In this document: piece after piece, positions 3,817 to 6,050 of the stretch
Layout: each line of letters starts with the position of its first letter
How positions within the stretch are numbered: the first letter of the stretch is position 1
Assembly: GCA_021850805.1 (NCBI GenBank)
Contig: JAJZKO010000003.1
Coordinates: 8,246-72,245 of the forward strand
Direction of reading: 5' to 3'
Length of the DNA: 64,000 bases
Source: Candidatus Micrarchaeota archaeon
GTDB lineage: Archaea > Micrarchaeota > Micrarchaeia > Micrarchaeales > CABMGC01
The notes under the pieces: model-generated
Databases searched by the model: none
What the model saw: the letters and a program-made list of their open reading frames with translations, nothing else
What the model was told of the DNA's origin: nothing
Program-made: the position numbers and the translations under genes

Positions 3817-4245
3817 TTATTTCGCATTAACCCCAAGCAGAGCTACATCCGCAGCGCTGCTCCCATAAAATTTAAGATCCAGAAACCTGAGTATAACAAC
3901 TCCGTTCTCGCTTGCAAAGGCCTCAATGCCTTCCCTGTCATCGGAGAAAATCAAGAAGTCTCTTGAATCTTCAACACTACACTCAGACACGGCATCATCT
4001 ATCCTGTCTCTTCCACTTATAAAAAGCATCATCTCTATATTTGCGTTTCCTGAATTCATCCCACCCTCGTTTAGTCTTACGTACGCATTCAGATACGATG
4101 GCAGGAGTCGCCCCAAAAACTCCTTCTTGTTCTTAAGTAACAGCATAAAGTATCCTTTTCCGAAAGAAGAAGCCGCTTTCTTCAGTCTTTCAGCATTAAC
4201 CTCTGAAGTGCATTCTGCAGCACTCCCCGGACCGAGGGAACCCAT
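3817..4245 (-). CDS. Cgi121-like KEOPS subunit (tentative)
   Basis: 142 aa. The segment IEMMLFISGRDRIDDAVSECSVEDSRDFLIFSDDRE resembles the archaeal Cgi121 core (E-hh-h-SG-RQI--AI...) as I remember it. Confidence 0.45.
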   Translation of the reverse strand: MGSLGPGSAAECTSEVNAERLKKAASSFGKGYFMLLLKNKKEFLGRLLPSYLNAYVRLNEGGMNSGNANIEMMLFISGRDRIDDAVSECSVEDSRDFLIFSDDREGIEAFASENGVVILRFLDLKFYGSSAADVALLGVNAK

Positions 4246-4366: not shown

Positions 4367-4762
4367 ATGAGCCAGTTCGGATCACAACTCCATTCAAGCT
4401 CCTCAAGGAAACTATCAGGGAGCGGGAAGAAGAGGAACAAGAACAAGGACAAAAAGCGACATGAGATGGGAGGGTACTTTTCCGCTACAAAGCTAGGTGC
4501 AGAGAACAGTTACAAGAAGGTAAGGGGAAGAGGCGGGGTGCTCAAGGAGAAGCTTAAATATGCTGCAACTGTCAACCTGCTTACTAGAAGCGGGTATAAA
4601 AAGACCAATATAAAAGCAGTAGTGGAATCAAAGGACAACCGCAACTTCGCAAGGCTCAACGTAATAACCAAAGGGTCCGTAATAGATACTGACCTCGGCA
4701 AGGCCGTGGTGACTAGCAGACCAGGAAGCGGCGCGGTAATAAACGCGCGACTGATTGAGTAA
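4367..4762 (+). CDS. rps8e: 30S ribosomal protein S8e
   Basis: GKKRNKNKDKKRHEMGG...NFARLNVITKGSVIDTDLGKAVVTSRPGSGAVINARLIE is a typical S8e. The internal ATG at 4367 is preferred over the upstream GTG because the TATA box lies inside the longer ORF. Confidence 0.85.
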   Translation: MSQFGSQLHSSSSRKLSGSGKKRNKNKDKKRHEMGGYFSATKLGAENSYKKVRGRGGVLKEKLKYAATVNLLTRSGYKKTNIKAVVESKDNRNFARLNVITKGSVIDTDLGKAVVTSRPGSGAVINARLIE

Positions 4763-4798
4763 GGTGATGCAATAAGCGCAGTTGTCTATTCCTGCAAC

Positions 4799-5146
4799 AT
4801 GGCAGATGCAGAGAAGCTCAGGCGCCTTCTCTCATACGACCCGTATCTTGATAAGTCTATCTCCGTGGAGAAGCTCAACGAGATAAAAAAAGACAACTCC
4901 GCAAATGTTATATTCGCAAGGCAGGACTATCAGCTTAAGGATGGGATATCATTGGGGCTTGATAGGGAAAAATATTACCTTTACATATCCGCAACTGATG
5001 AATTTCTCTCCGAAGCGGACAAGAAACTCAAGCATGAGATACCGAGCATAGAAAAAGTGGATGCCGCCTTAACGGACAGGATCATATCTGAACTTGACAA
5101 GGAAAGATCTATGAGCGAGCACGGCCTTGGCATGATATTCGGTTAG
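4799..5146 (+). CDS. hypothetical 115-aa protein with a ribosomal-stalk-like C-terminal tail (…SEHGLGMIFG)
   Basis: Clean ORF between rps8e and argF, with charged/helical composition. No family recognised. Confidence 0.5.
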   Translation: MADAEKLRRLLSYDPYLDKSISVEKLNEIKKDNSANVIFARQDYQLKDGISLGLDREKYYLYISATDEFLSEADKKLKHEIPSIEKVDAALTDRIISELDKERSMSEHGLGMIFG

Positions 5147-5156
5147 GCGGTGCCGG

Positions 5157-6050
5157 ATGAACCTGACGAAGATCACAGACCTCTCCGCAACCGATATAAA
5201 TGAGATATTCAGCATCGCCGACGCGATAAAAGCAGGCAGGCAAAAGTCAAAAATGGATAAGAAGGTCCTTGCTCTTCTTTTTGAAAAGCCTTCCACAAGG
5301 ACGCGTGTCTCTTTCGAGGCTGCGATGGCAAGGCTCGGCGGAAGCTCGATATACATAGACAAAAACACATCACAGCTCTCCAGAGGTGAGACCATAGGTG
5401 ACACTGCGATGGTGCTGAGCCAATATGTTGATTTCATAGCTGCAAGGATGTACAAGCAGCAGGATCTGGAGAATCTTGCATCCGCATCTACTGTGCCTGT
5501 AATAAACGCACTTACTGACATGGAGCACCCATGCCAGGCCATAAGCGACATATACACGATGAGGGAAAAGTCTGGCACACTTAAAGGGAAAAAACTCGCA
5601 TTTGTAGGAGATATAGCTGCAAATACTGCAAACTCACTATTGGCAGGATGCACGGCAATGGGAATAGATATTACGCTTGTAGGGCCAAAAGAATGCAGGC
5701 CAAATGCAAAGTATCTCTCAATTGCGAGGAAAAACGGTACCGTGGAGGTTATTGCTGATATGCATCACGGCATAGAAAAAGCGGATTTCATATATACGGA
5801 CACTTTTGTCAGTATGGGACAAGAGAGCGAGGCGGAGAAGAGAAGAGCTGAATTCAAGAACTTCCAGCTTAACACGCGTGCGCTCTTATACGCAAAGAAG
5901 ACAGCATTTATAATGCACTGCCTCCCTGCACACAGAGGCGAGGAGATAACGTCAGAAGTTCTGGACGGAAAGATGAGCATCGTAACCCTTCAGGCAAGGA
6001 ACAAAATGATAGTGGAAGGCGCTATACTGATATATCTTTCCTCAAAATAA
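5157..6050 (+). CDS. argF: ornithine carbamoyltransferase
   Basis: Carbamoyl-phosphate motif STRTRVSFE, DTFVSMGQE and HCLPAHRGEE. HCLPA is the OTC-type motif; ATCase has HPLPR. Confidence 0.8.
   Translation: MNLTKITDLSATDINEIFSIADAIKAGRQKSKMDKKVLALLFEKPSTRTRVSFEAAMARLGGSSIYIDKNTSQLSRGETIGDTAMVLSQYVDFIAARMYKQQDLENLASASTVPVINALTDMEHPCQAISDIYTMREKSGTLKGKKLAFVGDIAANTANSLLAGCTAMGIDITLVGPKECRPNAKYLSIARKNGTVEVIADMHHGIEKADFIYTDTFVSMGQESEAEKRRAEFKNFQLNTRALLYAKKTAFIMHCLPAHRGEEITSEVLDGKMSIVTLQARNKMIVEGAILIYLSSK

Follow-up and report, generated by a model that had tools for sequence, protein, structure and literature searches.

Here we describe a small gene in a 64,000-nucleotide (nt) stretch of archaeal DNA (the whole of which we refer to as ‘the window’). 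Its product, hereafter the ‘tail protein’, ends in the heptapeptide G-L-G-M-I-F-G, and thus carries at its extreme C-terminus a peptide of the kind with which the ribosomal stalk protein aP1 binds translation factors, on a body that is not that of a stalk protein. From comparisons of sequence, and with a probability that we would put at roughly one in two, we propose that the tail protein is an adaptor that docks translational GTPases through this tail. In archaea and eukaryotes alike, ribosomes recruit translational GTPases, and activate them, by way of the stalk tail, a universal handle that has so far been ascribed to stalk proteins alone; our survey of the literature found no report of a cellular non-stalk protein that carries one. 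The window (contig C25 in our numbering) belongs to a genome of the phylum Micrarchaeota, of 882 kb in 25 contigs, that is 84% complete.

The tail and the family that carries it

A preliminary description of this DNA, made from its letters alone, had drawn attention to an open reading frame (ORF) at 4799-5146 (+) and to the stalk-like end of its translation. Both are borne out: the frame encodes 115 amino acids (aa) from an ATG, with the C-terminus …ISELDKERSMSEHGLGMIFG followed by TAG, and the GLGMIFG peptide lies at 5123-5143 with the stop codon immediately 3' (5144-5146). The helical segment that had been placed ahead of the tail is also present in an N-terminally extended AlphaFold2 model, where it is acidic and spans residues 98-122. 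When all stop-terminated open frames of at least 50 codons were scanned across the whole genome, in all six frames, the pattern G-[LIMFV]-x-x-[LI]-F-G was found to end only two out of 7,501, namely aP1 and the tail-protein ORF, and for this reason we consider the tail to be more than a product of chance.

The genome's own aP1, a protein of 98 aa encoded on contig C22 downstream of aP0 (L001:1495-1791, -), has the C-terminus …EEAAAGGLASLFG / …KVSEEAAAGGLASLFG, ending in GGLASLFG. The suggested comparison of the two ends was informative, in that GLGMIFG agrees with the aP1 C-terminus at every position of importance in Pyrococcus horikoshii aP1, supplying L, I, F and G at the equivalents of Leu103, Leu106, Phe107 and Gly108. 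In the P. horikoshii protein, the substitutions L103S, L106S and F107S abolish binding to aEF1A, the same three residues had earlier been shown to be necessary for binding to aEF2, and the factor makes contact with the carboxylate of Gly108, the terminal residue (PMC4267659). A weak PF00428 match on contig C9, examined as a possible second P1-like protein of this genome, was rejected; it corresponds to a Lys/Glu/Gln-rich C-terminal extension, of ~35 residues, on an L7Ae-like protein (identity read from its sequence; L002:1252-1710, +).

Whether orthologs exist and keep the terminus had been put forward as a check, and here the answer is clear: they are abundant, and ~280 of 298 homologs retain it. 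Precisely, 174 end exactly in G-φ-G-x-I-F-G (where φ is a hydrophobic residue) and 106 have the same motif followed by 1-4 extra residues, with the remaining 18 being mostly fragments or variants such as GLSLFE. The 174 exact endings all have G(-6), G(-4), F(-1) and G(0), and 158 of them have I(-2). Of the nine columns that are invariant, or nearly so, in a DPANN-wide alignment, four fall in the last seven residues, which makes the tail the part of the protein that is conserved best. The tail protein and aP1 were both read in 28 further Micrarchaeota genomes; there aP1 always ends G-L-[AGS]-x-L-F-G, and the end of the tail protein is G-[FLIM]-G-x-[ILV]-[FL] with, in nearly every case, a final G after it.

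The likeness to aP1 and to the C-terminal region of aP0 is confined to small or acidic residues followed by G-φ-x-x-[LI]-F-G at the very end, together with an overall acidity that is common to aP1 and the tail protein. Neither PF00428 nor TIGR03685 matches the tail protein at E <= 1, whereas the genome's own aP1 matches TIGR03685 at E 7.2e-28; and in an hhalign comparison of the family with 30 Micrarchaeota aP1 sequences only the last 18 columns align (E 2.6e-4, probability 42%). Since the remainder of the protein consists of a ferredoxin-like domain and an acidic helix, we regard this as mimicry of a motif and not as homology to P1. Unlike aP1, the tail protein has no N-terminal helical domain for dimerisation and aP0-binding, its body being instead alpha/beta with one long helix; it has no flexible Ala/Lys/Glu-rich hinge or low-complexity linker, the tail simply continuing the 98-122 helix; and its gene lies outside the L11-L1-P0-P1 cluster. 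Moreover, where aP1 has Ala, Ser or Gly at position -4 and Leu at -2, the tail protein has an invariant Gly and Ile, and from the consistency of these differences we conclude that the motif is constrained independently of that of aP1, from which it was not recently copied.

The tail protein is a member of a family, as yet unnamed, of small acidic proteins (~100-155 aa) that appears to extend across DPANN archaea and is near-universal in Micrarchaeota. No family in Pfam or NCBIfam covers the tail protein or 10 of its distant homologs, the sole recurring library match for all of these being a weak one to the last ~50 positions of the aP0 model NF003098 (E 0.015-0.025), and no description of the family was found in the literature. 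Sequence searches returned 69 close homologs (E down to 3.6e-39), labelled Micrarchaeota wherever a source is named, and 51 cluster representatives by exhaustive phmmer against 1.84 billion proteins; profiles of the short and of the most distant forms gave 603 and 66 matches, respectively. The tail-protein frame itself matches the family profile at E 1.6e-37 and has all of the features of the full-length family: the RVY strand, the DPY and F-A-R motifs, the YLY strand, the acidic helix and the G-φ-G-x-I-F-G end. Whole-genome profile searches matched the family in 149 of 151 sampled Micrarchaeota genomes, nearly always once in each (a tally that counts one unpublished genome, G029, whose sequence was not used), and in 131 of the 133 that are of high quality. 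The family was also matched in 27 of 31 genomes of a second GTDB phylum, a small one to which a related locus had led, and the labels of metagenome-assembled genome records, which are unconfirmed, place further members in Diapherotrites, Pacearchaeota, Aenigmarchaeota and Hydrothermarchaeota. The family has a median isoelectric point (pI) of 5.0 and, over the last 30 residues, a median net charge of -3. Were a role assigned to the tail protein, one of the best-conserved ‘hypothetical’ genes of the Micrarchaeota would gain a function.

The same lineages have an unusual aP0. In model archaea the C-terminal region of aP0 is homologous to aP1, and the stalk thereby has seven sites at which factors bind (PMC7768734). 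The aP0 of this genome (L001:1811-2662, -, contig C22) is a protein of ~283 aa with …SVAEDKKE as its C-terminus, and its match spans positions 10-284 of the 336 in the profile. The aP0 ORF found beside aP1 is devoid of the tail motif at 29 of 29 Micrarchaeota loci and at 11 of 11 loci of the second phylum, the proteins being of ~272-342 aa and having neither the C-terminal hinge nor the G-L-x-x-L-F-G tail (L033-L062, L072-L085 and the genome's own). PF00428 matches aP1 alone in 29 of 30 Micrarchaeota genomes; the extra match, in G031, lies below the cut-off, is interrupted by stops and is not an aP0. In both lineages the stalk tail is therefore present on aP1 and on the tail protein, and absent from aP0. 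Saying this, the co-occurrence of aP0-tail loss with the family is a two-lineage observation and not a tested anticorrelation, and the NCBIfam L10 model NF003099, of 293 positions, is itself without a tail, such that tail-less aP0 may be more widespread.

The AlphaFold2 model (124-aa form; predicted local distance difference test score (pLDDT) 89.4, predicted template modelling score (pTM) 0.79, with pLDDT falling to 57-74 at the helix end) has the order β1-α1-α1'-β2-β3-α2, predicting a ferredoxin-like two-layer sandwich from which a 25-residue helix leads into the tail. The conserved motifs map to β1 (RVY), to the start of β2 (DPY and F-A-R) and to β3 (YLY). The best structural match given by VIA-align is the C-terminal domain of YigZ/TT1547 (2cve_A), of the YigZ/IMPACT type, with a similar order and packing of strands and helices (Z 8.5, root-mean-square deviation 1.6 Å over 64 residues). 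Further matches at Z 5.6-7.4 include SBDS domain III (1p9q, Z 6.9) and domain III/V modules of EF-G, EF-2, LepA and TetM (Z 5.6-6.2), again similar in order and packing, as well as KH, PII and designed ferredoxin folds. The tail protein differs from all of the translation-associated modules in that identity is 5-10% with no match at family level, and KH, PII/ACT and designed folds score alike. Foldseek searches of the PDB with both models gave nothing at E <= 0.001, their weak top rows being PII-like SbtB (E 0.04), an ACT-type protein (E 0.05) and GlnK1 (E 0.08), and a search of PDB sequences with the family profile gave nothing below E 0.79. No PII or ACT family of Pfam or NCBIfam matches the tail protein; the Joint Genome Institute (JGI) labels a few homologs as nitrogen regulatory protein PII, a label that is unconfirmed. 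Long forms of the family have a KH-like topology (βααββα) and match KH structures at Z 5.7-7.1, but assignment to KH type I was rejected, as the loop is DPY and not GXXG, no KH family of Pfam matches, and the α1' insertion is missing from the ~100-aa forms.

Extent of the gene and its start codon

The features of the locus, all on the forward strand of the window, are as follows.

4367..4762 (+), rps8e, ribosomal protein S8e (PF01201 E 2.6e-23, TIGR00307 E 8.4e-25; TAA stop at 4760-4762)
4763..4768 (+), Shine-Dalgarno-like GGTGAT, read from the sequence, with its GGTGA core 4 nt before the ATA at 4772
4772..5146 (+), proposed full tail-protein gene, 124 codons plus TAG, with an ATA (AUA) start
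4799..5146 (+), tail-protein ORF from ATG as gene callers delimit it, 115 aa (the database record is 100% identical and also of 115 aa)
4772..5056 (+), predicted globular alpha/beta domain, residues 1-95 (AlphaFold2 model and family alignments)
5063..5137 (+), predicted long acidic C-terminal helix, residues 98-122, running straight into the tail (DSSP on the AlphaFold2 model)
5123..5143 (+), stalk-type peptide G-L-G-M-I-F-G, with TAG at 5144-5146
5157..6050 (+), argF, ornithine carbamoyltransferase (TIGR00658 E 2.5e-101)

Our analysis suggests that the gene is probably longer than its annotated form, covering 4772-5146 and encoding 124 aa instead of 115, with initiation at an AUA codon. We place the start at 4772 on four grounds: homology upstream of the ATG, the aligned starts of orthologs, Shine-Dalgarno-like spacing and a better fold prediction. 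The family profile match begins at 4781, upstream of the ATG at 4799, and the in-frame residues there (…A-V-V-Y-S-C-N-M…) align with the conserved first strand of orthologs (M-P-x-R-V-Y-x-C-D); no ATG, GTG or TTG occurs between the rps8e TAA (4760-4762) and this strand, and it is the ATA at 4772 that lines up with where the orthologs start, at ATG, TTG or GTG. In the orthologs, [AG]GTGA-N4 precedes the ATG or TTG, which is the same spacing as in the GGTGA-N4-ATA seen here. Across 502 long ORFs of this genome, GGTG is 3.7-fold enriched within 20 nt before the first ATG, and the commonest spacing from GGTGA to the first ATG is 4 nt; the 3' end of 16S ribosomal RNA (rRNA), sought for its anti-Shine-Dalgarno element, was not found in the assembly. 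Adding the N-terminal extension to the AlphaFold2 input led to the gain of a first beta-strand and to a rise in pLDDT from 84.6 to 89.4 and in pTM from 0.69 to 0.79, in runs whose alignments differed.

The window is not alone in this respect. In a survey of 50 loci from two Micrarchaeota families, the codon aligned with the start is ATG in 26, TTG in seven, GTG in two and ATA in seven; ATA is the sole candidate start in five of the 50, with ATT or ATA in one and ACG in another (the loci with non-canonical starts being L010, L089, L093, L095, L098 and L091, plus window 4763-4774). The ATA loci have GGTG or GGTGA 4-5 nt upstream, where several orthologs with ATG have a weaker AGTGA. As ATG and ATA alternate within genera, the start-codon switch appears to be recurrent. 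If true, this would add a case of recurrent natural AUA (and ATT/ACG) initiation for archaea, and it has a practical corollary for annotation, with gene callers either shortening AUA-start members to a downstream ATG or missing them altogether.

Candidate partners and competing explanations

How might such a protein work? As the likeliest mechanism, we envisage that the tail, a helix end whose C-terminal Gly is free, would insert its three hydrophobic side chains into the grooves of translational GTPases that otherwise accept the aP1 tail; candidates on the GTPase side would be aEF1A, aEF2 and aIF5B, perhaps with ABCE1 as a further one. The globular domain would have a binding partner of its own, to which the adaptor would couple translation factors, and would dock either at the stalk base, there supplying the tail that aP0 has lost, or off the ribosome. 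We infer both the binding of factors by the tail and the docking site of the globular domain. More broadly, a carrier of unrelated fold, in lineages where the aP0 tail has been lost, suggests either that factor recruitment has been rebuilt in these reduced genomes or that they possess a dedicated factor-binding adaptor or regulator.

The stalk tail binds aIF5B as well as the elongation factors, and aEF1A, aEF2 and aIF5B are all encoded in the genome. Published work describes aEF1A, aEF2, ABCE1 and certain ribosome-inactivating proteins (trichosanthin and ricin A among them) as receptors of the stalk tail (PMC4267659, PMC5887453, PMC6125642, PMC6162817, PMC4379515). Whereas each of these proteins, like aIF5B, receives the tail, the tail protein carries one. 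In the genome's own aEF1A (L069:1492-2793, -), the hydrophobic residues of the aP1 groove are kept, with F129→Y and I384→L, and with L166 and L359 unchanged. The Fer4_RLI domain of ABCE1 was not found, a result that is uninformative on absence, given a genome that is 84% complete. Replacement of aEF1B, a protein of the same fold class that binds aEF1A, was also considered and rejected: the tail protein has no PF00736 match, and a separate aEF1B is encoded on contig C4 (36.4 bits, above the cut-off).

Several points weigh against the adaptor. The Gly at -4 and the Ile at -2 consistently set the tail apart from aP1, which in all of the 30 genomes compared has Ala/Ser/Gly and Leu there, a difference that may reflect a different partner or selectivity, and a motif of seven residues can converge for other reasons. 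The tail is predicted to sit on a rigid helix, as opposed to the flexible hinge of aP1. On the receptor side, Lys324 and Ser423 of P. horikoshii aEF1A, which contact the terminal carboxylate, are Thr and Asp in the genome's own aEF1A; Lys324 is, however, likewise not kept in the aEF1A structures of Sulfolobus and Aeropyrum, and the carboxylate ‘clamp’ thus seems to be Pyrococcus-specific. The matches to the modelled fold are generic, falling in a range of Z that the tool attributes to common arrangements. Lastly, the gene neighbourhood has no consistent link to translation outside of two families.

One form of the adaptor, a tentative and in our view somewhat unlikely one, is a surrogate for the aP0 tail, in which the globular domain would dock at the stalk base of the large subunit, or close to it, and present a single tail. 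In its favour, aP0 is tail-less at every locus inspected (29/29 and 11/11) in the same lineages in which the family is near-universal, although this is an observation in two lineages only and, to go by NF003099, tail-less aP0 may occur more widely; a near-universal gene that is matched nearly always once in genomes of only 0.6-1.5 Mb resembles the housekeeping parts of translation; and in one gene order it lies directly 3' of rps8e. Domain V-type modules of EF-G/EF-2 and SBDS domain III contact the stalk base, and structures of these kinds are among the matches (1p9q, Z 6.9; 3cb4, 8dmf, 3j9y and 2dy1, Z 5.6-6.2), but the scores are within the range of common arrangements, and most rRNA-binding ribosomal proteins do not share the acidity of the family (median pI 5.0). 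Taken further, one could speculate that the stalk has been re-partitioned in Micrarchaeota and related DPANN archaea, aP0 having lost its tail and an unrelated small protein supplying one in trans, at the stalk base or at a second ribosomal site. We think this unlikely; were it true, the tail protein would be a new lineage-specific ribosome-associated protein and the first case of a cellular stalk tail on a non-stalk protein.

The tail protein might instead act wholly off the ribosome, as a competitor, buffer or chaperone, the free protein filling the stalk groove of aEF1A, aEF2 or aIF5B so as to hold a pool of factors, slow translation or hand factors on. This draws on the same tail evidence as does the adaptor, and on the acidic, soluble-looking character of a protein that has no rRNA-binding signature; furthermore, the aP1 tail binds both GTP- and GDP-bound factors, and does so away from the factor-binding centre (PMC7768734). 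We are doubtful all the same, in that a pure competitor would be unusual as a near-universal single-copy gene in strongly reduced genomes, and the globular domain is well conserved (F-A-R, DPY and YLY being nearly invariant), which implies a specific partner of its own and not the role of a mere carrier for the tail. Convergence, with the tail used for oligomerisation, for non-translational docking or as the C-terminal switch of a PII/ACT-like sensor, perhaps one linked to arginine or nitrogen, strikes us as improbable. The weak Foldseek rows (SbtB, ACT-type and GlnK, E 0.04-0.08), the unconfirmed PII label of some homologs, the presence of argF downstream in one gene order and of argH or argG within ~1.3 kb at two loci from other families, and the two positions at which the tail consistently departs from aP1 all speak for it. 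Set against these, no PII or ACT family is matched at the level of sequence, gene neighbours vary in most families, every position relevant to aP1 function is kept, including the terminal Gly, and in this genome the motif is common to aP1 and the tail protein only.

It is also conceivable, albeit extremely improbable, that the ORF is merely a C-terminal extension of S8e made by read-through of the rps8e stop codon, the two genes being in the same frame here and separated by TAA plus three codons. Elsewhere (L004, L005, L007 and L010) rps8e is immediately upstream and the frame of the tail gene, open far in that direction, runs through the end of rps8e with a translation that is unlike S8e; 18 loci from other families lack an adjacent rps8e altogether; and orthologs have their own ATG, TTG or GTG start with a Shine-Dalgarno-like element. 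The difference in frames between genomes excludes read-through as a general mechanism.

Gene neighbourhood and transcription

In the window the ATG of the tail protein lies 36 nt past rps8e, and argF begins 10 nt past the stop codon, followed by pyrH. The order rps8e, tail gene, argF (and then pyrH) typifies 12 loci of two related Micrarchaeota families (f1 and f2), with rps8e upstream in 11 (the twelfth locus being incomplete on that side) and argF downstream in 10. The order was kept at none of 18 loci from other Micrarchaeota families, where neighbours include CorA, PCMT, inositol monophosphatase and a phosphoribosyltransferase. In the preliminary description the proximity of rps8e had been taken as compatible with a role in translation; the adjacency is real, but lends weak support, being confined to these two families.

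Genes of the arginine pathway recur near the tail gene, in a manner that depends on the family. In the order seen here argF is directly downstream (5157-6050), and at two loci from other families ORFs resembling argH or argG are found within ~1.3 kb (L021:1358-2827 and 4662-5954; L029:4463-5857), these identities being a reading of N-terminal sequences. Such proximity may be due to chance or be a remnant of an older arrangement.

Two further ORFs are worthy of mention. Upstream of rps8e, and divergent from it, is an ORF of 142 aa (window 3817-4245, -), the place of which is conserved in eight of the 12 related loci, and which has weak matches only, to the KEOPS subunit Cgi121 (Pfam E 0.18, NCBIfam E 0.011). 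At four loci from other families the tail gene is adjoined by an ORF of ~160-183 aa (L023:2466-2945, -; L024:3248-3799, +; L028:3311-3808, +; L032:3272-3817, +), three of which have the common stretches …RGIPS… and …SWLAIVD[DE]ART…; the sole hint as to their family is a weak PIN_5 match (E 0.006).

There is, finally, weak evidence that the tail-protein gene is transcribed. Three metatranscriptome runs were searched, two of which came back empty; the third gave one contig of 237 nt, from mine drainage, that is an exact (100%) match to window 4826-5062 and, being internal to the gene, is uninformative on transcript ends or the start codon. The match fits with an acid-mine-drainage origin for the genome.

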